Below the pieces are notes generated by a model that was given only the letters and a program-made list of their open reading frames with translations, was not told the DNA's origin and did not search any database. Positions 1,805-18,609 of a DNA stretch of 64,000 nt are shown piece after piece. Position 1 is the first letter of the stretch, and each line of letters starts with the position of its first letter. Made by a program: the position numbers and the translations under genes. Source of the DNA: a virus; IMG/VR virus record IMGVR_UViG_3300037484_000374, positions 96,001-160,000 of that record. One strand, written 5' to 3'.

Positions 1805-3433
1805 ATGAGACTGAAAAGACATTTAATACTTGAGAATGTTTCCAAGCAAGAGATTGATGATGCTCTTAAAAATAAAAATATCATTATAGGCTGCGAGTTC
1901 GAGTTTATTCATAACGATCTTCCAGAAGAAGGTGTTAGTGATTTTGTATCTACTGTATATGAACCAGCATATAATGCATGGCAACAATACCAAAAAGAGG
2001 TATATACATATAAAAAACAAGAAGAATTGTTCTGGAAAGAGATCAACAAGGAAGAGAAGAGATTAGAAGCAGAAGTCCTTGTAATTGATAATATAATAGA
2101 GAGACAGAATGAATTAGATAAAAACAGTGATGAGTGGAATAAGCTGGAAGTTGGGGTTAAAAAACTCAAAAAAAAATATGATAAAAAAGTTAAGGAACTC
2201 GAAGAAAGACGTGACAACTCATATGAAGAGTTAGACGGGTATTGGCCAGAAATAGATACTGATTACATGCAATATTGGGAAAAGACAACAGGTGATATTC
2301 CAGATGGAATATCAACAAACTCCCAAAAAGGCAAATGGTTTGCCACAGACGCACCGGATGATTTTTCAATACCTGAACCAGATATTGTGGGTTGGGGGAG
2401 TGTGCCAGGTGATGATGAATGGCAAAGTCAAGTCGAGGAACTTAATTGGTCAAGCGCACCTTTCAAAGATTATGAAATTGGTGATTATGGTCAGATTGTT
2501 CAGAAATTAGGTGATACTAAATGGGCTATTGAAGCAGATAAAACTCTTGGATATCAAGGCATTGAAGTAAAATCTCCACCAACAAATTTACCAAAAGCCA
2601 TTGATGATATTGAAAAGATGTTTAAATATATCAACAAACAAGGCTATACAGATAATAGAACGGGGTTTCATGTTCATATGAGTGTCAAGGGTATAAATAA
2701 CCTTGAAGATAAACTCGACCCGGTTAAACTTTTGATGTTCATGGATGAGGGTTTTATATGGAAACATTTCGCTGACAGGGTGAGTAATATCTTTGCCATG
2801 TCAATGAAGGACAAGTTTAAGAACGAGGGTGATATTAGACCAAATGATTTCAGTAAACTGGTAGACAAAAAGAAATTAAAAACTAAAATGACCGCCGAAC
2901 ATTTCGATGCTATCAACCTCAGTAAATGGCAACAGGGTCATATAGAATTCAGATATATGGGTGGTCGAGACTACCATAAAAAGTTTAATGAAGTGAAAGC
3001 CATTATTGGTCAGTACTCTCACAATATTTCACTGGCATTAGACCCTGAGTTTAAAAAGAAAGAATACCTTCTTAAAATTCAGCGTATCGCTAATAAGATG
3101 GAACTTTATAAAATGGAAAAAATGCTTGAATGGTATCGGCATGTTAGCCAATATACAAAGGATTTAGATAAATCATTTAAAAACCTCAAGCTGGTGTTAA
3201 AGAAGAGGATGAGAGAGATCGAGAATTATATAACCTCTTTAAAGAAAACATATAAGATCAATGACCGTGAACATATGTTATTGGGAAATAATAAGGGGTT
3301 TACCTACGGTATCGAAGATGATATCAAGAAAGATATAAGTAAAATTATAGATAAATGGGAAGATATTTTACCAGTAAGCTATATGAACGACATAATGCCG
3401 TTTATAGGAATGAGAATCTTGAAGAACAGATAA
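1805..3433 (+). CDS. putative amidoligase (COOH-NH2 ligase family)
   Basis: IGCEFEF, GIEVKSP, TGFHVHMS, HIEFRYMGG motifs. Confidence 0.8.
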   Translation: MRLKRHLILENVSKQEIDDALKNKNIIIGCEFEFIHNDLPEEGVSDFVSTVYEPAYNAWQQYQKEVYTYKKQEELFWKEINKEEKRLEAEVLVIDNIIERQNELDKNSDEWNKLEVGVKKLKKKYDKKVKELEERRDNSYEELDGYWPEIDTDYMQYWEKTTGDIPDGISTNSQKGKWFATDAPDDFSIPEPDIVGWGSVPGDDEWQSQVEELNWSSAPFKDYEIGDYGQIVQKLGDTKWAIEADKTLGYQGIEVKSPPTNLPKAIDDIEKMFKYINKQGYTDNRTGFHVHMSVKGINNLEDKLDPVKLLMFMDEGFIWKHFADRVSNIFAMSMKDKFKNEGDIRPNDFSKLVDKKKLKTKMTAEHFDAINLSKWQQGHIEFRYMGGRDYHKKFNEVKAIIGQYSHNISLALDPEFKKKEYLLKIQRIANKMELYKMEKMLEWYRHVSQYTKDLDKSFKNLKLVLKKRMREIENYITSLKKTYKINDREHMLLGNNKGFTYGIEDDIKKDISKIIDKWEDILPVSYMNDIMPFIGMRILKNR

Positions 3434-5421: not shown

Positions 5422-6505
5422 AGAGTCAACCAACAAAGCGATCACAGCACCAGCGAATATTCAGATGCACAGCTATATTGGTGATTATCAGGGATGTGGA
5501 ACCATCAGAATTATATACCCACACATGCTATTAAACCAATGGCGTGATAAAACTAACGTTAGTGTTTGTGCAAGTCATAATTCTGCATTTATAAATGACC
5601 CAAATTTCTACAATCGACTTCTGTGTATTCAATTCCAGAGAGCAATAACTGATCAACAGCTACAGATGATCCAGTGGTTTTCACATAACCTTGGAAGGTC
5701 TACCAAGACACCAATTCTTTATGAAAGCGATGATGATTTATTGAATATTTCGAAATGGAATTTCGCCTTTGATTATTACCAACCTTACCTTAAAAATCTT
5801 CCTAAGATTTTGGGGCTTTGTGCTGGTGTGACGGTTTCTACGGAACCTTTGAAACAACTATACTCAAAGTATAATAAGAATATCGTTGTCATACCAAATC
5901 ACCTTCCCAAAGCAATTTGGGGCAATATTCCAGAAAACAAACCAGAGAATGAGAAACCAAGAATTCTTTGGGGTGGAAGCGCAAACCATTTTTCGAGAAA
6001 GAAAGGTATGCAGGGTGGTGATTTCAGTATAGAACTTATAGATTTCATTAAGAAAACAACAGACAAATATGAATGGAATTTTATTGGCTCCATGCCGATG
6101 GAACTTGAAGAATTAAAAGATAAAATCAAAGCCCATCCTTGGCAGACCACTTTCGGTTATGCCAATTTTGTAAAGTCATTAAATATCGATATCGGTATTG
6201 CGCCGCTAGAAGATAACGAGTTTAACAAATCAAAATCAAATATCAAGATGTTGGAGTATACCGCCGCTGGTATAGCCAGTGTGTACTCTGATGTTTACCC
6301 ATACAAGGGTGCTAAGAATATATGTTCTACTACAGAATATATGATTGACAGAATAGAAGCCCTTGCCGCAAATGCTGATCTCAGAAAGGAAACAATACAA
6401 CACGACTACGAATTGGTAAAAGATAATCTCTATTGGGAAGAAAATGATAACCTAAGAAAGTATGTTAATGCATATTTAGGGTTATTTAAATTAACTTTAC
6501 CTTAA
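5387..6505 (+). CDS. glycosyltransferase (GT-B, GT4-like)
   Basis: YESDDDL, DIGIAPLEDNEFNKSKSNIKMLEY. Confidence 0.85.
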   Translation: MSNQLKKLKKSKESTNKAITAPANIQMHSYIGDYQGCGTIRIIYPHMLLNQWRDKTNVSVCASHNSAFINDPNFYNRLLCIQFQRAITDQQLQMIQWFSHNLGRSTKTPILYESDDDLLNISKWNFAFDYYQPYLKNLPKILGLCAGVTVSTEPLKQLYSKYNKNIVVIPNHLPKAIWGNIPENKPENEKPRILWGGSANHFSRKKGMQGGDFSIELIDFIKKTTDKYEWNFIGSMPMELEELKDKIKAHPWQTTFGYANFVKSLNIDIGIAPLEDNEFNKSKSNIKMLEYTAAGIASVYSDVYPYKGAKNICSTTEYMIDRIEALAANADLRKETIQHDYELVKDNLYWEENDNLRKYVNAYLGLFKLTLP

Positions 6506-10449: not shown

Positions 10450-10794
10450 GTGAACAAGAAATCGTGTTTTGATTGTAAAAATGCTGTCGTGGTACAAGGA
10501 GATGCATCGGTTGGTATTGGTGGAATATGTATTGATAACTGCCACGCACAATTAACAGAAGACCAGATGGAAGCATGTGAAGACTGTGATTGGATAGAAT
10601 ATAAATGTCCAGCAAAATGTGGTCACTTTGAACATATTATGGTTGAAGTGTGTGCCGAGTGTAAAAAAGAAATGAATACCCCATTACATGAAGTAGAGTA
10701 TTATGGGGTTGAATATGTTGATATTCCGGTATGTTCGGTGGAATGTAAAATCAAGTTTGATGAGACAGTTGGAAAAAAAATTAAAGAATATTAA
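10450..10794 (+). CDS. cysteine-rich hypothetical protein
   Basis: 114-aa ORF behind a TTGACA promoter. Confidence 0.55.
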   Translation: MNKKSCFDCKNAVVVQGDASVGIGGICIDNCHAQLTEDQMEACEDCDWIEYKCPAKCGHFEHIMVEVCAECKKEMNTPLHEVEYYGVEYVDIPVCSVECKIKFDETVGKKIKEY

Positions 10795-10822
10795 AATAAT
10801 TTAGAAAAAATTTGAAAACTTA

Positions 10823-10830
10823 TATAAATA
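10823..10830 (+). promoter_or_regulatory. late promoter of tRNA operon 1 leader
   Basis: TATAAATA in GAAAACTTATATAAATA context shared with 14632. Confidence 0.75.
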
Positions 10831-10847
10831 CAAATAGAGAAACTATT

Positions 10848-10925
10848 ATGAAAAACACAAAAACGACCTCGACATCCAGTAAACCAAGTAACCCCAATCA
10901 TAGTGATTGGCCGGTGTACGTGTAG
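10848..10925 (+). CDS. leader peptide 1, MKNTKTTSTSSKPSNPNHSDWPVYV (putative attenuator peptide)
   Basis: 25-codon ORF between late promoter and terminator; stop codon lies in the antiterminator strand. Confidence 0.75.
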   Translation: MKNTKTTSTSSKPSNPNHSDWPVYV

Positions 10926-10988
10926 AATTCTCTAAAGTAATGTTGTAACCATAAAGGGGAGAATCTACAAAGGTTTTTCCCTTTTTTT
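10921..10988 (+). terminator. attenuator 1: antiterminator 10921-10933/10957-10968 versus terminator 10954-10988
   Basis: AAGGGGAGAATCT-ACAA-AGGTTTTTCCCTT + T run; TGTAGA(A)TTCTC pairs with GAGAATCTACA. Confidence 0.8.
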
Positions 10989-11001: not shown

Positions 11002-11076
11002 GGGGTGGTGGTTCAGTAGTAGAGCACAAGGTTGAAGTCCTTGGATAGCGGGGCGCGATTCTCCTCACCCCTGACC
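11002..11076 (+). tRNA. tRNA-Phe(GAA), atypical T-loop
   Basis: CAAGG-TTGAAGT-CCTTG anticodon arm, GGGGTGG/TCACCCC acceptor; T-loop CGCGATT. Confidence 0.75.
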
Positions 11077-11091
11077 AAAAATTGAATATAT

Positions 11092-11174
11092 AGATTGTAC
11101 CGCCATGGGGCAAACTGCTTTTGAACGGCATGGGTGGGTGAAACCACGGGGTTCGATTCCTCTACTTTCTGCCA
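11092..11174 (+). tRNA. tRNA-Ser(TGA), apparent 8/4 fold
   Basis: TGCT-TTTGAAC-GGCA arm, long variable arm, GGGG-TTCGATT-CCTC, G73-CCA. Confidence 0.75.
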
Positions 11175-11181
11175 AGAATAT

Positions 11182-11268
11182 AGTAGATTGACCGAGCGGC
11201 AAGGTATCTGGTTGCTAACCAGCAGTAAGGGTGACACCTCACAGGTTCGAATCCTGTATCTACTGCCA
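11182..11268 (+). tRNA. tRNA-Ser(GCT)
   Basis: AGTAGAT/ATCTACT, CTGG-TTGCTAA-CCAG, variable arm, GCCA. Confidence 0.9.
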
Positions 11269-11281
11269 GAAATAAATGTAT

Positions 11282-11355
11282 GGGGGTGTAACTTAGTGGC
11301 AAAGTAACTGGCTTTTAACCAGTAAACGGGGGTTCGATTCTCCTCACCCCCACCA
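11282..11355 (+). tRNA. tRNA-Lys(TTT)
   Basis: ACTGG-CTTTTAA-CCAGT, full cloverleaf, ACCA. Confidence 0.92.
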
Positions 11356-11426
11356 AAAATTGAATAGTAACACTAACTATACACGGTAATATTACCAATG
11401 TTACAATGCAAGGGGGGGGGGGTACC

Positions 11427-11645
11427 ATGAATAAGTTTTTTAGAAAACAGTTGGAAAAGTTGAAATCAGGTCGAGGTAAAAGTCTGACTTATAATAATAA
11501 ACATGGAAAGTTTAGAGTAAAATATTGTGATGGTGTAAAATCCAAACCAATGTTTTATGATATCGCAAAAAGATTCGCTGGCATATTCAATGGGAAAGTA
11601 TTTTACATTGAAGATGAGGATGAATATCAGCGGTATGCGTTATAA
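11427..11645 (+). CDS. hypothetical basic protein
   Basis: ATG after poly-G tract, between tRNAs. Confidence 0.5.
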   Translation: MNKFFRKQLEKLKSGRGKSLTYNNKHGKFRVKYCDGVKSKPMFYDIAKRFAGIFNGKVFYIEDEDEYQRYAL

Positions 11646-11658
11646 TTGAGAATGATAT

Positions 11659-11735
11659 ACTCCTATGGTGTTAATTGGTAAGCATGTGTGGCTGTTAACC
11701 ACAGGGCCAATGTTCGAGTCCTCGTAGGAGTGCCA
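11659..11735 (+). tRNA. tRNA-Asn(GTT), weakened T-stem
   Basis: TGTGG-CTGTTAA-CCACA, ACTCCTA/TAGGAGT, GCCA; two T-stem mismatches. Confidence 0.78.
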
Positions 11736-11743
11736 AAATTAAT

Positions 11744-11817
11744 GTATCTCTGGTGAAATGGTATCATGATTGGCTCCAACCCAATCGTTGTGGGTTCAAG
11801 TCCTACGAGGTACGCCA
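11744..11817 (+). tRNA. tRNA-Trp(CCA)
   Basis: ATTGG-CTCCAAC-CCAAT, GTATCTC/GAGGTAC, GCCA. Confidence 0.9.
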
Positions 11818-11829
11818 TTAAAAATATAC

Positions 11830-11903
11830 GCTAAGAGTGGTTCTGGGAACCGATTTCTCTTGTAAGGAAGTTTTTGGGGGTTCGACTCCTCCTCTTAGCT
11901 CCA
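11830..11903 (+). tRNA. tRNA-Thr(TGT), short D-loop
   Basis: GCTAAGA/TCTTAGC, loop CTTGTAA, D-arm GGTTC-TGG-GAACC, TCCA. Confidence 0.82.
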
Positions 11904-11972
11904 AGTTTACACACAACAAGTATTGTGGTATAATGATAGTAAATATAATAGGAGATGTAATGACAAGATTTT
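11903..11972 (+). repeat. 70-bp promoter-RBS-start module, identical inverted copy at 47968-48037
   Basis: TTTACA-N17-TATAAT, AGGAG, ATGACAAGATTTT; exact reverse complement at 47968-48037. Confidence 0.9.
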
Positions 11973-12421
11973 TCAAAAGCATTAAAAATTTAATCAGGTG
12001 GTTTCCAGTAATATGGAATGACAAAGATTGGGACAACGCTTATATCTATACGATATTACATAAGAAAATATCAAATATGGAAGATTTTTTCAGAACCGAT
12101 GCTATTATCAGTGAAGCAGACAGAGTTGCCGATGAGATCAACACCGTGGTTTTAGCTCTCCAAAGACTTGTCAAAGATGAGTATGAAGAAATAGCCTTTG
12201 AAGACCATGATAAGAAATGGGGTAAAATAGGAATGATAGAAGCACCATGGAAGATGCACAAGTTTAACTTCACCAGAAAAAATGTCACCACAGAAGAGGA
12301 TAAGAAAATAGAAAAGCAGGAAATGCTTGCTTGTTTTGATAGAGTAGAAGCATATAGACAGTGTGATATTGATCTTGTATGTGATACCATGAAAGAAAAA
12401 ATTCAGGAATGGTGGGATTGA
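11960..12421 (+). CDS. hypothetical phage protein
   Basis: MTRFFKSIKNLIRWFPVIWNDKDWD...EWWD; start after AGGAG. Confidence 0.7.
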   Translation: MTRFFKSIKNLIRWFPVIWNDKDWDNAYIYTILHKKISNMEDFFRTDAIISEADRVADEINTVVLALQRLVKDEYEEIAFEDHDKKWGKIGMIEAPWKMHKFNFTRKNVTTEEDKKIEKQEMLACFDRVEAYRQCDIDLVCDTMKEKIQEWWD

Positions 12422-12429
12422 AATAATAA

Positions 12430-12505
12430 CTGGGTGTAGCTGAGTTTGGTTTAGCACGGGCCTTGGGAGTCCGAGACGGAGGTTCAAATCCTCTCATCCA
12501 GACCA
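12430..12505 (+). tRNA. tRNA-Pro(TGG)
   Basis: CTGGGTG/CATCCAG, loop CTTGGGA, ACCA. Confidence 0.9.
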
Positions 12506-13349: not shown

Positions 13350-14204
13350 ATGAAAAATTTGTTAAGTGTATTGGTAGCATTGGTTGCATTTCTTGCTGTC
13401 AGTACAATCCCACAGGTATCTAGGGCATCAGATGACGTTACGATAATGTTTGAGATCGGGATCGGTATTGGTAAATCTGGAAAGGTTGCCAAGAAAGTTG
13501 ACGCTGATCCACGACTCTGTAAGAATCGTGACACTGGTCGGTTGATTTATTTTGGTGTTCGTGCAACATATGATGATGTTGAACTTCACCTTGCGCGTTG
13601 GCAGGGTGACGCTGACTGTTTGACATGTGAGCGTGACGCCTGGGCCTTGGGCCTTGGATATCAAATAACCAGTGATGATCATGGAACAATGGATTATGAC
13701 GATGTGTATACCACATGGACTCATGGACTTGCCTATACATGGGGTGAGGAAAAAAGATACGGGGGTGAGGAAAAAGAAAATACTAACTGGCGTTTACATG
13801 GTAACTTCCAGATTTTTAACCGCCTTGCTGTTGGGGTTCAGACAGAAGATGCAATGCTTGAAGTTGCCTTGAATCGTTATGGTTCATTTGATCCTAACCA
13901 CGGTGAAACATTCTTAACCGCTGGTCTTGGTCTTAACTTTTTGGAAGACACAACACATGTACCAATAGCCACACCTGAAAAAGAAATCGTTTACATCGAA
14001 GGGTCAGCGGGTAAAGACGGAACCGATGGTGAAGATGGTGAAGATGGTGAAGATGGTGAAGATGGTGAAGATGGTGAAGATGGTGAAGATGGTGAAGATG
14101 GTGAAGATGGTGAAGATGGTAACAAGGGTAATAATGGAAACGGTAACGGCTCAGAAGGTGCTTCCCCAGGTCAGGGTAATGGGGCCAACGATGATGAAAA
14201 TTAA
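13350..14204 (+). CDS. exported outer-membrane beta-barrel-like protein (PagL-like pattern) with collagen-like (GED)10 tail
   Basis: signal peptide, alternating beta strands, NFQIFNRLAVGV...PNHGETFL, Gly-X-Y repeat. Confidence 0.55.
   Translation: MKNLLSVLVALVAFLAVSTIPQVSRASDDVTIMFEIGIGIGKSGKVAKKVDADPRLCKNRDTGRLIYFGVRATYDDVELHLARWQGDADCLTCERDAWALGLGYQITSDDHGTMDYDDVYTTWTHGLAYTWGEEKRYGGEEKENTNWRLHGNFQIFNRLAVGVQTEDAMLEVALNRYGSFDPNHGETFLTAGLGLNFLEDTTHVPIATPEKEIVYIEGSAGKDGTDGEDGEDGEDGEDGEDGEDGEDGEDGEDGEDGNKGNNGNGNGSEGASPGQGNGANDDEN
14025..14120 (+). repeat. 9-bp tandem repeat GATGGTGAA x10.7
   Basis: perfect repeat encoding DGE. Confidence 0.95.
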
Positions 14205-14242
14205 TTTATAAAGTAAAATAGATACATAAGAAATCAAAAAAA

Positions 14243-14279
14243 AGGGGGGGGGGGCATAGAAATATGTTCCTCTTTTTTT
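14243..14279 (+). terminator. intrinsic terminator
   Basis: G-run/CATA-GAAA-TATG/TTCCTC + T tract. Confidence 0.75.
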
Positions 14280-14352
14280 GATTTAATCACTTGACTTTTT
14301 CTACAGATGTGATATAATACATTATAAGATAAATTCAGTTGAGGGATACACC

Positions 14353-14592
14353 ATGTTACATAAGAAAACAATGTTATTAAGAACCAAAGATAATACTACC
14401 ACTGTTAGAATAGGACTTTTCGGTAATAACTTCAACCCCGATGCTTGGTATCTCTTGAATAAAAGAAATGAGCCAGATGTGATTGTTAATACATCACCAG
14501 CAGGGGCCAGCAAGATCGTTCTCTCATACAAGACATTGGAAGGAAAGAGAGTCTATGATATCTATAAAGTTACATCAATAATAGATATTTGA
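14353..14592 (+). CDS. hypothetical protein
   Basis: behind TTGACT...TATAAT promoter and GAGG RBS. Confidence 0.55.
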   Translation: MLHKKTMLLRTKDNTTTVRIGLFGNNFNPDAWYLLNKRNEPDVIVNTSPAGASKIVLSYKTLEGKRVYDIYKVTSIIDI

Positions 14593-14631
14593 GAAAAAAT
14601 TAAAATAATTTGAGAAAAAATAGAAAACTTA

Positions 14632-14639
14632 TATAAATA
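14632..14639 (+). promoter_or_regulatory. late promoter of tRNA operon 2 leader
   Basis: TATAAATA followed by AGGAG. Confidence 0.75.
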
Positions 14640-14660
14640 GTAATAGGAGAATTAAATTCA

Positions 14661-14744
14661 ATGACACTCAGACAGACATATACTCTTTTAGAACAACGCA
14701 TACTTGTGATAGGTATTGTTGTGTATTGTGGAGAAATACCGTAA
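14661..14744 (+). CDS. leader peptide 2, MTLRQTYTLLEQRILVIGIVVYCGEIP (putative attenuator peptide)
   Basis: 27-codon ORF with AGGAG RBS; stop codon begins the antiterminator strand. Confidence 0.78.
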   Translation: MTLRQTYTLLEQRILVIGIVVYCGEIP

Positions 14745-14808
14745 GACTGGGGGATAAAATAACGATCACAGAACCCCTTGGTCTTAAAAAAGATTAGGGG
14801 GTTTTTTT
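14742..14808 (+). terminator. attenuator 2: antiterminator 14742-14753/14775-14786 versus terminator 14772-14808
   Basis: AACCCCTTGGTCTT-AAAA-AAGATTAGGGGGTT + T run; TAAGACTGGGGG pairs with CCCTTGGTCTTA. Confidence 0.82.
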
Positions 14809-14814
14809 ATTTGA

Positions 14815-14842
14815 TTGACACAGCTTAAAAATATGGTATAAT
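14815..14842 (+). promoter_or_regulatory. sigma70-type early promoter
   Basis: TTGACA-N16-TATAAT with TGG before -10. Confidence 0.7.
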
Positions 14843-14975
14843 AAAATATAGGTAAAAGATTAAACTTTATTTAACAGGCGAGTAGGATGTCAGTAACAAT
14901 CATAGTAGTAACAGTTGTTGTAGAAATAGCATTAGTATTGTTGTTTAAAGAGAAAAACTAGGTCTTTGTTCTATG

Positions 14976-15034
14976 TTGAGGTGTGTGGCTTGTAATCACA
15001 ATATATTGGGGCAGAGTATCCATCATCTCAACCA
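14976..15034 (+). pseudogene. D-armless tRNA-like element with TGT (Thr) anticodon loop
   Basis: TTGAGGTG/CATCTCAA-CCA, TGTGG-CTTGTAA-TCACA, degenerate T-arm. Confidence 0.5.
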
Positions 15035-15046
15035 AAGAAATAATGA

Positions 15047-15121
15047 AGGGGCATAACACAATGGTAGTGTACATGACTTTGAATCGTGATATGGTGGGTT
15101 CGATTCCCCCTGCCCCCGCCA
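15047..15121 (+). tRNA. tRNA-Gln(TTG)
   Basis: CATGA-CTTTGAA-TCGTG, unpaired 1:72, GCCA. Confidence 0.88.
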
Positions 15122-15160
15122 AAAATAAATGTGTATTTTTATTATAAATACTAATAATAT

Positions 15161-15237
15161 GGGAGAGTGGTGGAACTGGTATACATACTTCGCTTAGACC
15201 GAAGGTTTTAGGGGTTCGACTCCCCTCTCTCATACCA
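15161..15237 (+). tRNA. tRNA-Leu(TAG), short variable loop
   Basis: CTTCG-CTTAGAC-CGAAG, AGGGG-TTCGACT-CCCCT, ACCA. Confidence 0.82.
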
Positions 15238-15452
15238 GATTAATCATCGTGGAGATTAACCATGTGCATATTTAAATGTAGTTGTGGAAGCAGGAAAGTT
15301 AAGATAGAATCTTTTTGTAATTGTCATTATGTAATCTGTATTAATTGTAAAAATACTACAGAGAATTGTACGAGTCCAGAAATGGCAGTATTGAAATGGA
15401 ACCAAAAAATTGATAGTATAAGTCATAGTAAATAACCAAAAGGGAGATAGAT

Positions 15453-15842
15453 ATGAAGAAATTGTTTTTAGTATTGATAATATGTTTGAGTTTGTTGTTA
15501 CCGGTAGTTGCATCAGCAAACATGGAGTGTTTGGGTGAACCGCTCACGGATGGCGAAACCAATATAGTTAATATGGTTCACGAACTTCTTACAGCATACG
15601 GTGCTTATATAATACCACTTGCAAACGCAGTTAAACCGGAAGAGGTTTTGGCAATGACTCGACCCGATCTTCAAAGATTGGCAACCCAATTAACAGAAGA
15701 GGGTCTTTTACAAGTGGTTTCAGGTCAGATTGGTTATTACGAAGAGGGTGATGTTTGGATGTTCGTGATTGTCGAACCAACACTGGATAAGGAAGCGGCA
15801 TGTATTATCAGTGTAATGTTAAGAGAGAAGACAGCAAAATGA
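15453..15842 (+). CDS. exported hypothetical protein
   Basis: signal peptide MKKLFLVLIICLSLLLPVVASA. Confidence 0.65.
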   Translation: MKKLFLVLIICLSLLLPVVASANMECLGEPLTDGETNIVNMVHELLTAYGAYIIPLANAVKPEEVLAMTRPDLQRLATQLTEEGLLQVVSGQIGYYEEGDVWMFVIVEPTLDKEAACIISVMLREKTAK

Positions 15843-16234
15843 AAATTTTATTCAGAATATTGATTGTATTAATGTTTTTGTCAGTACCAATGAGCGCACA
15901 GGCAAAAAAAGAATGTACCAGTTGTGGAACGCTGGGTGTTACCGAGCAGATTACGGTAAATGATATTAACAAACAAGTCACTGAGTATTGTAGTGAAAAT
16001 ATGGGCAAGATGAAAACGTGGCCAGTACATAGGGCCATCAAAAAAGCCGAGAAGGGGATCAATTTGATCGTCACACGGTTTATCGACAAGGGGTACGTTG
16101 ATGGTATCACTGTCGAGTTTAAAGTCGTTAGCGATGAGCTATGGCCCGATAGTAAAAAAGTTTATGTAGAATTAACCATTGTTCCAAATAATAAGAAACC
16201 GTCAAGGTGTGTTATCACGGGAAGGTTACAATGA
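15839..16234 (+). CDS. exported hypothetical protein
   Basis: signal peptide MKILFRILIVLMFLSVPMSAQA; ATGA overlap. Confidence 0.65.
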   Translation: MKILFRILIVLMFLSVPMSAQAKKECTSCGTLGVTEQITVNDINKQVTEYCSENMGKMKTWPVHRAIKKAEKGINLIVTRFIDKGYVDGITVEFKVVSDELWPDSKKVYVELTIVPNNKKPSRCVITGRLQ

Positions 16235-16605
16235 TGAGAATTGTATATATACTCTTAGCACTGATGGTTTTTATGTCACCATCGTTTGAAAAACTTAGCG
16301 CATATTCTGGGATGAGTCAACAAACCAAGAACCAAGGAAGCAATACGAATGTTGTGGAGGTAAAAAAAGAAATTCGAGCATGGTGTGAATATTATTCAGA
16401 AAAAATACCATCAAGGTTAACGTTAATATTATTACAAAGTTCACTGGATGGTTATTGTAACTTTGCAGTTCGTGAGAGGATGGTATATTGGGTTGATAGT
16501 GTGGCATTTATTAAGAATAATGAGATTTGGGTAAAGACCATTATCATCCCTGTAAAGGGTGGAGAAAAAATAGAGTTTACGTTAAGACTCGTAACGAAGT
16601 GTTAA
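16231..16605 (+). CDS. exported hypothetical protein
   Basis: hydrophobic N-terminus; third of three similar-sized exported ORFs. Confidence 0.6.
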   Translation: MMRIVYILLALMVFMSPSFEKLSAYSGMSQQTKNQGSNTNVVEVKKEIRAWCEYYSEKIPSRLTLILLQSSLDGYCNFAVRERMVYWVDSVAFIKNNEIWVKTIIIPVKGGEKIEFTLRLVTKC

Positions 16606-16615
16606 TATAAAATAT

Positions 16616-16705
16616 GGAGAGTGCAAATAAGGCTGGATTGGTCTGGCGGTTGGCTGTAAACCAACCCCTGATAGACATGGGGTTCGAATCCTTCACTCCC
16701 CACCA
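16616..16705 (+). tRNA. tRNA-Tyr(GTA), apparent 8/4 fold
   Basis: GGTTGG-CTGTAAA-CCAACC, GGAGAGTG/CACTCCCC, 4-bp T-stem, ACCA. Confidence 0.78.
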
Positions 16706-17040
16706 AATAGGAACAAGTATGGATATTGAAAAATGTGAATGTGGAAGTAAGAATGTTATACCAGAACTTTTTTGCGGTAGATCATATATCTATTGTAAGG
16801 ATTGTGAAAAAACCACCGGCGAACATATATTACTCGATGAGGCCATAGGTGAATGGAATAAAATGTCCAGAGTGTGGTGATGAAGCAGTACAGGCATTAG
16901 TCAATGGAAGACCGGCCATGGTTTGTGAGAGTTGTATCAATGGAGTTATGACACTTACACAATGCCAATATTGTAATGAATATAGATACAAGAGACAACA
17001 AAAAGTTTGTGGCTGTAGGGAAACGATGAACGAATAATAC

Positions 17041-17421
17041 ATGTACCATCCAGACAATAGGTTTCTGGCAATGAGCTTACGAAACTCGTTTGATAGTCTC
17101 AACTCCTATATGGTACCCCAATTTAAAAAAGGATTCACAATGCCTATAAATTTGGAAATTGAAGATTATGAAAGTGTTTTAATTTTAGCAGATGATGAAA
17201 ATGGGAATTTAGTCTGGGAAGTATTGATGCCCGAAATTGATGAAAATGTAGACAGTGAAGGGGTTTCAATACCAACATTAATGTGCGCCGCTGTTGCAAC
17301 CAGAATGAAAGAAGATAAGGGGTTTGTTGATGATATGATAAACTGGTTTGATTGTTTCGTTTGTACTGAACCACCACCAGTTAAAGGTAGAATGAAAACA
17401 AGTTTGAGGAGAGTAAAATAA
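17041..17421 (+). CDS. hypothetical acidic protein (true start may be 17140)
   Basis: ORF; AAGGA precedes MPINLE. Confidence 0.55.
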   Translation: MYHPDNRFLAMSLRNSFDSLNSYMVPQFKKGFTMPINLEIEDYESVLILADDENGNLVWEVLMPEIDENVDSEGVSIPTLMCAAVATRMKEDKGFVDDMINWFDCFVCTEPPPVKGRMKTSLRRVK

Positions 17422-17427
17422 TTTTAT

Positions 17428-17502
17428 GCTCTGATAGTTTAACGGTAGAACGGACAACTTATAGTTGTTTAATGGCCGGTTCGACTCCACCTCAGAGCAC
17501 CA
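17428..17502 (+). tRNA. tRNA with TAT anticodon, Ile(UAU)
   Basis: GACAA-CTTATAG-TTGTT, GCTCTGA/TCAGAGC, ACCA; imperfect T-stem. Confidence 0.7.
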
Positions 17503-17624
17503 TTAAGGTTTACGGTATGATAAAAATATGTTTGAAATGTGATCAAAAAAAGGATATATCTGAATTTCATAAAAATTGCCATGCTGAATATCATCATTTG
17601 AAAAGATGTAAAAATTGAAAATAA

Positions 17625-17704
17625 GCGGGTATGATAAGCCAAGGGCATTGGTAAACTGGACACCAGCCAGTAAATAAGGGGTTCGACTCCCCCTTCCCGC
17701 TCCA
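17625..17704 (+). tRNA. tRNA-Gly(ACC), atypical anticodon loop
   Basis: GCGGG/CCCGC-T-CCA Gly-type acceptor, ACTGG-ACACCAG-CCAGT. Confidence 0.65.
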
Positions 17705-17716
17705 AAAGTTTTATAT

Positions 17717-17793
17717 AGTTCCGTAGCTTAATTGGCCAAGCATCTCTTTTACACGGAGAAGTCATAAGAGTTCGAGTCTCTTCGGAACCACCA
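17717..17793 (+). tRNA. tRNA-Val(TAC)
   Basis: TCTCT-TTTACAC-GGAGA, ACCA. Confidence 0.88.
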
Positions 17794-17803
17794 ATATTAA
17801 TAT

Positions 17804-17880
17804 AGCGGTGTAGCTCAGTGGTAGAGCCGTGGTCCTGATAAGGCACAGACTTAAAGTTCGATTCTTTTTCACCGCTACCA
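17804..17880 (+). tRNA. tRNA-Ile(GAT)
   Basis: AGCGGTG/CACCGCT, loop CTGATAA, ACCA. Confidence 0.82.
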
Positions 17881-17899
17881 TTAAATAAAGGATGTTAAT

Positions 17900-18172
17900 A
17901 TGGATGAATTTGTTAAAGTATTTTGTAGGGTTGTAAAGATGCATTGGTACACTTGGAAAGCAAAATATATTCTGGATTCTATTTTGGATGTATGTCGATG
18001 GATAATTTATATTGGTTTCCTTCCAAAGACATTAATTAACTGGACTGTTGGTTGTCATTTGGCAAACTCCAAAAGATTAAGGAAGGTTATTATAGAATCT
18101 GATTTTACAGACATCATAAAATTTGTAGATCGGGCTGATAGAGCCTATAGAAACCTTTACATCGAAGATTAA
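17900..18172 (+). CDS. hypothetical protein
   Basis: AAGGA RBS; resembles 18182-18445. Confidence 0.55.
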   Translation: MDEFVKVFCRVVKMHWYTWKAKYILDSILDVCRWIIYIGFLPKTLINWTVGCHLANSKRLRKVIIESDFTDIIKFVDRADRAYRNLYIED

Positions 18173-18181
18173 AGGAACAAA

Positions 18182-18445
18182 ATGAGTAAGCTAAAAATTG
18201 TTTTGAGGATAGTAAGATTGTACAGATGTACTTTTATAGGAAAGTATTACATACCGTTTTTAAATAAAATCATGGATTGTTTTGTGTTTCTTGGAATTAT
18301 CCACTACGGATTTCACAACCATATTGTTGATAAGATAAAGGAAAACACACAAAGAATAATTGAGATCGCCATAGAAGGTGGTAACCATGACCTTGCTGAT
18401 ATCGCTGATGATCAGAATAAAACAGCAGACGATTTATATATTTAA
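18182..18445 (+). CDS. hypothetical protein
   Basis: AAGGA RBS; possible paralog of 17900-18172. Confidence 0.55.
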   Translation: MSKLKIVLRIVRLYRCTFIGKYYIPFLNKIMDCFVFLGIIHYGFHNHIVDKIKENTQRIIEIAIEGGNHDLADIADDQNKTADDLYI

Positions 18446-18451
18446 ATGTGA

Positions 18452-18524
18452 CGCAAAGTAGACCGGTGTCTGGTGAAGTCTCATAAGCTCTCACGCTGGG
18501 GTTCAATTCCCCACTTTGCATCCA
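18452..18524 (+). tRNA. tRNA with CAT anticodon, initiator-like C1:A72 mismatch
   Basis: CGCAAAG/CTTTGCA, loop CTCATAA, TGGGG-TTCAATT-CCCCA, TCCA. Confidence 0.72.
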
Positions 18525-18535
18525 AATAATTAAAT

Positions 18536-18609
18536 GGGGATATAGTTTAGTGGCAGAACAGCTGTCTTTCTAACAGCCAGCAGGGGTTCGATTCCCCTTA
18601 TCCCTACCA
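18536..18609 (+). tRNA. tRNA with TTC anticodon (Glu), U at position 37
   Basis: GCTGT-CTTTCTA-ACAGC, GGGGATA/TATCCCT, ACCA; identity uncertain. Confidence 0.7.

Follow-up and report, generated by a model that had tools for sequence, protein, structure and literature searches.

The closest described relatives of the locus reported here are the multivalent leader-peptide attenuators of the enterobacterial branched-chain and threonine operons, ilvL (ilvGMEDA), ivbL (ilvBN), and thrL. In these systems a short translated leader contains codons for several amino acids, and an intrinsic terminator and an antiterminator helix are competing alternatives. Because the stop codon adjoins the antiterminator strand, the position of the ribosome picks the fold; the terminator is the stabler of the two structures, so the choice between them is kinetic. 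Attenuation is also found in the translation apparatus, where the pheM leader of pheST controls a cellular, protein-coding aminoacyl-tRNA synthetase operon by sensing the charged tRNA of a single amino acid. Phage tRNA genes, meanwhile, are usually seen as static aids to codon usage or as replacements for host tRNAs lost to defence nucleases. A full-text literature search, with subscription journals outside its scope, found no published description of attenuators before phage tRNA genes, and a prior description is possible. Here we describe a segment of viral DNA (positions 14598 to 14808 of the window, by which we mean the whole 64,000-nucleotide stretch analysed) that is, in our judgment, likely to be a ribosome-mediated, multivalent leader-peptide transcription attenuator for read-through into a cluster of phage tRNA genes. 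This reading draws on sequence elements, alternative folds, a match in composition between leader and cluster, and recurrence in other phages, from which we infer leader translation, stalling, read-through, and the timing of the promoters.

The window corresponds to bases 96001 to 160000 of a single 170,951-base virus record that is ~71% complete (CheckV) and has a G+C content of ~35%. The T4-like functions of the genome include an anaerobic ribonucleotide reductase and a single-strand DNA-binding protein of the gp32 type, and the late sigma factor of T4, gp55, has a homologue there too (36% identity to T4 gp55, E 5e-15). The closest relatives of its gp32 are 46 to 56% identical and all metagenomic, while the nearest gp32 from a cultured phage shares <31% identity; a second contig with the same phage's gp32 is 1.2 kb long. 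A blastn search of positions 14200 to 15300 against 50,697 phage records returned no match, and gp32 as a single query against viral contigs yielded no relatives. Queries consisting of the 17-nt promoter motif alone, or of the late box plus start-context motif, returned chance matches only, and the small proteins nearby matched no family in a PHROG search. The record's tRNA genes all fall into two clusters, both inside the window (11002 to 12505 and 15047 to 18609). Between the two clusters is a 284-amino-acid ORF (13350 to 14204) with a collagen-like tail and weak matches to tail-fibre PHROGs, within which about ten tandem copies of the 9-nt repeat GAAGATGGT occur at ~14030 to 14120. Two runs of 11 G residues were also seen, one (11412 to 11422) directly 5' of the start codon of an ORF at 11428 and the other (14244 to 14254) past the collagen-like gene; these could be slippage-prone tracts or assembly artefacts.

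The locus preceding the second cluster, which we call unit 2, covers 14598 to 14808 and is followed by a promoter past its terminator; its elements are collected with those of the paralogous unit 1 in the table. The late-promoter assignment draws on the box TATAAATA upstream of the unit together with the phage-encoded gp55-type sigma factor; across the genome the same box lies <=60 nt upstream of ORFs of >=60 amino acids in 19 of 55 cases, against a background of 7%. Behind the box, a short ORF with a start codon and a ribosome-binding site is separated from the tRNA genes by an intrinsic terminator (14770 to 14805) of 16 pairs, counting G-T, with a loop of 4 and a T-run at 14802 to 14808. This is the strongest plus-strand terminator call between 9000 and 21000, and it dominates the minimum-energy fold. 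When the transcript was folded only up to the end of the terminator 5' strand, 14742-14753 paired with 14775-14786 over 11 to 12 pairs (duplex energy -15.7 kcal/mol), giving an antiterminator that is mutually exclusive with the terminator and could be blocked by a ribosome at the stop codon. Taken alone, this complementarity in unit 2 does not exceed that of shuffled sequences (p 0.16). The T-run lies 57 nt from the stop codon. These results uphold the anatomy given in the original prediction, which had listed the leader codons exactly, had named a 14-bp terminator behind them and a strand starting at the stop codon that pairs with its 5' arm, and had placed a sigma-70 promoter at 14815 and a further TATAAATA downstream of the terminator at 15143 (found at 15143 to 15150, between tRNA-Gln and tRNA-Leu). 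Its overall reading as a leader-peptide attenuator is likewise supported by the full anatomy of unit 2, the functional case being comparative and the mechanism a proposed one.

Table. Coordinates of unit 2, the tRNA genes that follow it, and the paralogous unit 1 (positions in the window)
Feature	Position	Strand	Basis or remark
Unit 2, A/T-rich promoter block, 45 nt, ending in TATATAAATA	14598-14639	+	Near-identical to block 10782-10830
Unit 2, T4-type late-promoter box TATAAATA	14632-14639	+	Read in sequence
Unit 2, Shine-Dalgarno AGGAG	14645-14649	+	11 nt 5' of ATG
Unit 2, leader ORF, 27 codons including Met	14661-14744	+	26 sense codons; TAA at 14742-14744
Unit 2, antiterminator 5' strand (region 2)	14742-14753	+	Begins at TAA stop; nascent-transcript fold
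Unit 2, terminator 5' strand (region 3)	14770-14785	+	Alternative partners 14742-14753 or 14790-14805; terminator call and folds
Unit 2, terminator 3' strand (region 4) and T-run	14790-14808	+	Terminator call and minimum-energy fold
Consensus sigma-70 promoter (TTGACA, 16 nt, TG-TATAAT)	14815-14842	+	12/12, extended -10 TG; 3' of terminator
Cluster 2, regulated unit, tRNAs interspersed with small ORFs	15047-18609	+	ARAGORN and Rfam
tRNA-Gln(UUG)	15047-15121	+	ARAGORN, Rfam
tRNA-Leu(UAG)	15161-15237	+	ARAGORN, Rfam
tRNA-Ile(UAU)	17428-17502	+	ARAGORN, Rfam
tRNA-Val(UAC)	17717-17793	+	ARAGORN, Rfam
tRNA-Ile(GAU)	17804-17880	+	ARAGORN, Rfam
tRNA-Glu(UUC)	18536-18609	+	ARAGORN, Rfam
Unit 1, promoter block like that of unit 2 (14598-14639)	10782-10830	+	Near-identical
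Unit 1, leader ORF	10848-10925	+	19 of 24 residues S/K/N/W/T/P
Unit 1, terminator	10953-10984	+	Terminator call

Between the sigma-70 promoter and tRNA-Gln there is a further ORF of 24 codons (14888 to 14962), very rich in Val, Ile, Leu, and Glu, and 3' of it a long hairpin (~14963 to 15040, -20 kcal/mol) without a T-run. In this ORF 15 of 23 residues belong to the amino-acid set of cluster 2 (p 0.001), a match made ambiguous by the membrane-helix type of these residues; the ORF could serve early transcripts as a second leader, or it could be just a small hydrophobic peptide.

We propose that the attenuator sits between upstream promoters (the late box and, probably, an early promoter at 14291) and cluster 2, such that on transcripts initiated upstream ribosomes would translate the leader, 27 codons in which Leu, Ile, Val, Gln, and Glu are frequent. 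A ribosome that reaches the stop codon would cover region 2, allowing the terminator to fold and transcription to end. If the matching charged tRNAs were short, a ribosome would stall at codons 2 to ~23, region 2 would pair with 14775-14786, and the antiterminator so formed would block the terminator and let RNA polymerase read into the tRNA genes. The new tRNAs would relieve the stall, completing a negative feedback. The sigma-70 promoter at 14815 would provide expression of the cluster independently of the attenuator, presumably early in infection. Given a promoter directly past the terminator, the attenuator would add to tRNA expression, mainly late, rather than act as its sole gate; the caution in the original prediction that it may boost rather than gate holds, and the same arrangement recurs in two units from other phages (L278 and L307).

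No plus-strand terminator was called inside cluster 2. Its small ORFs include three in tandem at 15453 to 16605 (129, 144, and 132 amino acids) with N-termini resembling signal peptides, and the two of these that were searched belonged to no PHROG family. Four stretches of the window, at 16615-16701, 17627-17703, 18452-18524, and 11083-11175, look like tRNAs with a good T-arm and acceptor 3' end and odd D or anticodon regions, their anticodon-like loops reading GUA, ACC, CAU, and UGA, respectively. Default ARAGORN and the Rfam tRNA model made no call at any of them; they may represent functional tRNAs of an unusual kind, or copies in decay.

After Met, the composition of leader 2 is L4 I4 V3 T3 Q2 E2 Y2 G2 R2 C1 P1, which is enriched for amino acids tied to the regulated genes. 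Measured against the tool-called tRNAs (Gln, Leu, Ile, Val, and Glu), 15 of the 26 residues match (binomial p 0.006 to 0.008, the value of 0.006 being relative to the phage's own amino-acid usage; p 0.003 relative to nucleotide shuffles of the ORF). This match is specific to the frame, the other two frames giving 9 and 4 matches, and 13 of the 15 matching codons fall within the effective stretch from codon 2 to ~23. The other 11 residues (three Thr, two each of Arg, Tyr, and Gly, one Cys, and one Pro) have no tool-called tRNA downstream. The 19 matches of 26 in the original prediction are reached only if the tRNA-like stretches with GUA and ACC loops are counted, and the remnant of a Thr loop that it had seen at 14976 is unsupported. 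Under strict wobble rules 10 of the 26 codons are cognate (p 0.07), and the four Leu codons (CTC, two CTT, and TTA) are not read by the UAG anticodon. In E. coli, the cmo5U modification of U34 lets a tRNA read U as well; were the phage's UAG and UAC anticodons modified in this way, both CTT codons and GTT would become cognate. The three ATA codons to which the original prediction drew attention are indeed present, and their frequency is unremarkable (p 0.06) because ATA, the commonest Ile codon of the phage, makes up 42% of its Ile codons; the last of them (codon 26) is too near region 2 to act by stalling. Two features of classical attenuators are absent from the unit: there is no tandem run of codons for a single amino acid of the trpL, hisL, pheL, or leuL form, the longest runs being LL and VV, and what lies downstream is tRNA genes and small ORFs, not amino-acid biosynthesis or synthetase genes. 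On its own, unit 2 is suggestive and amounts to modest evidence, short of compelling, and it is the least strong of the informative units. The case for function rests on comparison.

The nearest comparison is within the genome. Unit 1 as a whole spans 10782 to 10984 and is followed by a Phe-like tRNA and tRNAs for Ser, Lys, Asn, Trp, Thr, and Pro. The leaders of units 1 and 2 sort onto their own clusters (table of matches [[19,2],[4,15]], p 1.4e-5), a result that rules out the idea that any phage ORF favours codons served by phage tRNAs. We also scanned both strands of the 171-kb genome and of 37 gp32-linked loci from relatives mechanically for TATAAATA, an ATG-initiated ORF of 8 to 45 codons within 70 nt, and a terminator within 100 nt. 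Only three matches were returned, all before tRNA clusters: the two units of the window and one in a relative's locus, L118.

Further loci were gathered through gp32 homologues and through DNA patterns made up of the late box, a gap, and a terminator tail; since the patterns contained no ORF criterion, ORF content played no part in the selection. The pattern scans gave 149 loci, of which 15 had tRNA genes downstream on the same strand, and 14 of these 15 carried a short ORF of the leader kind. One locus with pattern and tRNA, L296, was rejected for want of an ORF. The other 134 loci had no same-strand tRNA gene downstream, and some of them contained chance short ORFs. Altogether, nine distinct units consisting of late-promoter box, short ORF, terminator, and tRNA cluster were recovered, two in the window (U1 and U2) and seven in other phage contigs: L118, L166, L182 (also in L174, L183, L209, and L221), L212 (also in L227), L272 (also in L299), L278 (also in L277 and L308), and L307. 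The gp32-linked loci L117 and L128 to L165 mostly lacked a tRNA cluster near gp32 or a unit before the first tRNA gene, so the design is not universal in the clade. No orthologue of leader 2 itself was found, the nearest gp32 homologue being 56% identical, and when the L182 and L212 units were compared with phage records by blastn, tRNA genes were all that matched. The leaders of the sister units share no sequence, and a Shine-Dalgarno motif is weak or absent in some.

What the nine units do share is geometry. The stop codon lies 50 to 66 nt from the T-run in all nine, and in the nascent folds of eight the partner of the terminator 5' strand is a segment that ends, on its 3' side, at -8 to +12 of the stop; in L166 the pairing between ORF end and terminator appears only as a 9-bp duplex. 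In all nine units a terminating ribosome would cover the pairing segment. Relative to shuffles, complementarity is strong in L182 and L212 (p <0.001) and weak in the others, a duplex test with the terminator 5' strand alone being weak for single units, and six units combined give p 9e-6. A sigma-70 promoter directly 3' of the terminator, seen in U2 (12/12), is found as well in L278 and L307 (11/12 each), which fits a dual design of unconditional early transcripts made by host polymerase and conditional transcripts that pass through the leader.

Leader composition follows the tRNA content of the cluster behind it. The p values for the match of leader to its own cluster are 2.7e-5 for U1, 8e-3 for U2, 1.3e-3 for L118, 0.04 for L166, 1.2e-4 for L212, and 0.04 for L272, and among the 720 label permutations of these six informative units the true assignment of leaders to clusters is the unique maximum. 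The cluster of L118 encodes tRNAs for His, Phe, Asp, and Gln, and its leader contains H, F, D, and Q; that of L212 encodes tRNAs for Tyr and Arg, and its leader contains Y and R. The L272 cluster serves Ile, Tyr, Phe, Glu, Lys, Met, and Cys, and 10 of the first 11 leader residues after Met come from that set. Behind L182 and L278 lie 23 to 24 tRNAs of 18 amino-acid types, and their leaders contain 20 types in 37 residues (P 0.001) and 19 types in 33 residues (P 0.006), respectively. The L307 leader has 19 types as well, its contig ending past the first tRNA. Leaders of small clusters contain 10 to 11 types, fewer than random peptides (P 0.03 to 0.07). Within matched amino acids, the choice of codon agrees with the cluster slightly more often than expected (96 of 120, 89 expected).

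A possible unit outside the nine occurs in L148 (minus strand, ~2930 to 3030 of the locus), where a 31-codon ORF stands behind a sigma-70-like promoter and a strong terminator ends 27 nt 5' of tRNA-Pro. Its leader covers all nine amino-acid types of the cluster (P 0.008) without enrichment (p 0.23); it has no late box, and its alternative helix is not clear-cut. Two other observations concern L118. A tRNA at 6150 to 6224 (Rfam 62.6 bits) has a CUA anticodon and would be an amber suppressor, a hint that the phage may read through or recode TAG. Just 5' of its leader unit, ~430 nt without an ORF (13575 to 14000) look structured, with no Rfam match at E up to 0.05.

A further view of the leader frame comes from cultured vibriophages of the KVP40 type. 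Phage D482 has a 38-codon ORF containing 19 amino-acid types (P 0.017); a terminator comes 28 nt later, and then >20 tRNA genes covering all 20 amino acids. Orthologues of this unit are present in KVP40, nt-1, ValKK3, F86, VS1, CZ01, 1.081.O, and V07 at 73 to 77% DNA identity, and in all of them a frame of 37 to 38 codons is open and contains 17 to 19 amino-acid types; the KVP40 unit lies at ~178,750 to 178,920 of its record. Insertions and deletions within the ORF occur only in threes, while the upstream spacer takes indels of 1, 2, and 4 nt. Substitutions are mostly nonsynonymous and show no bias toward third positions (24/17/24 variable sites), and the best conserved part is the stop codon plus a hairpin overlapping the terminator 5' strand. 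As judged from these alignments, the pattern is the signature of a frame that needs to be translated and whose product is irrelevant. The series is orthologous to neither unit of the window and supports the class, not leader 2's own frame. Among the public annotations of this group the leader frame is annotated only in the F86 record; in the KVP40 and D482 records a hypothetical gene is annotated opposite the conserved ORF (202 to 366 of L322, minus strand, and 4406 to 4660 of L321, respectively), which is probably a miscall in both. In T4 itself, no late box, short ORF, or terminator was found in the 97 nt before the first tRNA gene, tRNA-Gln.

We considered whether unit 2 might be an ordinary operon end, in which the ORF is spurious or trivial, the hairpin terminates the unit transcribed from the promoter at 14291, cluster 2 is expressed only from 14815, and the leader matches by chance. 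In its favour, the terminator has a perfect promoter directly past it, the statistics of unit 2 are modest (p 0.007 for amino acids, 0.07 for codons, and 0.16 for the alternative helix), and ATA is the commonest Ile codon of the phage. However, the architecture precedes tRNA clusters in nine units and occurs nowhere else in the scanned sequences, no other of the 720 assignments of leaders to clusters does as well as the true one, the match of leader 2 is confined to its frame, and the promoter block is duplicated in unit 1. We therefore think this explanation unlikely. Slightly more doubtful is an attenuator coupled to translation that reports general translation capacity, i.e., ribosome availability or elongation speed, with the codon match a by-product of descent or composition. 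Leader 2 does contain many residue types, with about half strictly cognate, the leaders of large clusters contain nearly all amino acids, and the arrival of a ribosome at the stop codon would promote termination regardless of the codons before it. Yet the two leaders of one genome have opposite compositions, each fitting its own cluster, leaders of small clusters are poorer in residue types than random (10 to 11, P 0.03 to 0.07), and differences between units follow their tRNA sets.

The two remaining alternatives dispense with the leader as a sensor. A switch made of RNA only (for instance a leader that binds tRNA in the manner of a T-box) or dependent on a factor (for instance an antiterminator protein of the phage that binds there) would leave the ORF incidental; two mutually exclusive helices exist regardless of translation, and the 45-nt upstream block common to units 1 and 2 could be a protein-binding site. 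Against this, there is no T-box and no credible non-tRNA Rfam match between 9000 and 21000 at E up to 1, the leaders have no sequence in common, and the KVP40-type ORF tolerates indels only in threes while its flanks take those of 1, 2, and 4 nt, so that we regard such a switch as highly improbable. A functional micropeptide to which the terminator is unrelated would also suit the Shine-Dalgarno motif and ATG, as well as the occasional annotation of such ORFs by gene callers, of which the F86 record is an example. To this we give hardly any credence, given that sister leaders are unrelated in sequence and that the mostly nonsynonymous, position-indifferent variation of the KVP40 series (24/17/24) is the opposite of what a conserved peptide would show.

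Returning to the leader-peptide attenuator, we lean, somewhat less firmly than for unit 2 itself, toward the broader view that "checklist" leader peptides provide general feedback control of phage tRNA supply across phage lineages, including cultured vibriophages of the KVP40/nt-1 type. Ahead of each block of tRNA genes, a short translated frame would sample the amino acids served by that block and set a terminator/antiterminator switch. T4-like phages would have this switch linked to late promoters, alongside an early promoter that is constitutive. If true, the translation apparatus would be under feedback driven by demand, leader-peptide attenuation would reach beyond enzyme genes to tRNA genes, and the sorting of phage tRNA genes into blocks would have an explanation. 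The units could also find use as small natural sensors that report how available particular tRNAs are. The idea is open to bench tests, since an orthologous unit is present in phages cultured on Vibrio natriegens (nt-1 and CZ01) and on V. parahaemolyticus (KVP40).

Set beside the described systems, unit 2 resembles ilvL, ivbL, and thrL in its leader of mixed amino acids, the competition between terminator and antiterminator, the antiterminator strand adjacent to the stop codon, and the greater stability of the terminator. It differs from them in that the genes it would regulate encode phage tRNAs instead of biosynthetic enzymes, in that its leader is a mixed checklist without tandem runs of a single codon, and in its promoters, a phage promoter of the late type in front and a second, constitutive one past the terminator. 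Like pheM, it would apply attenuation to the translation apparatus by sensing charged tRNA; unlike pheM, it would regulate tRNA itself, making the feedback loop a direct one. T-box riboswitches, located upstream of tRNA-charging genes, are similar in that the status of a tRNA sets the choice between terminator and antiterminator, but they work without translation, by direct binding of uncharged tRNA at a specifier codon and the T-box motif, whereas in the attenuator units the ORF frame matters. With T4 the phage shares a T4-like genome, clustered tRNA genes, TATAAATA late promoters, and a gp55 homologue, although the region before the first T4 tRNA gene, unlike unit 2, contains none of the corresponding elements. 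The present analysis contributes a set of T4-like examples behind late-type promoters, the recurring promoter past the terminator, and the cultured KVP40/nt-1 series.
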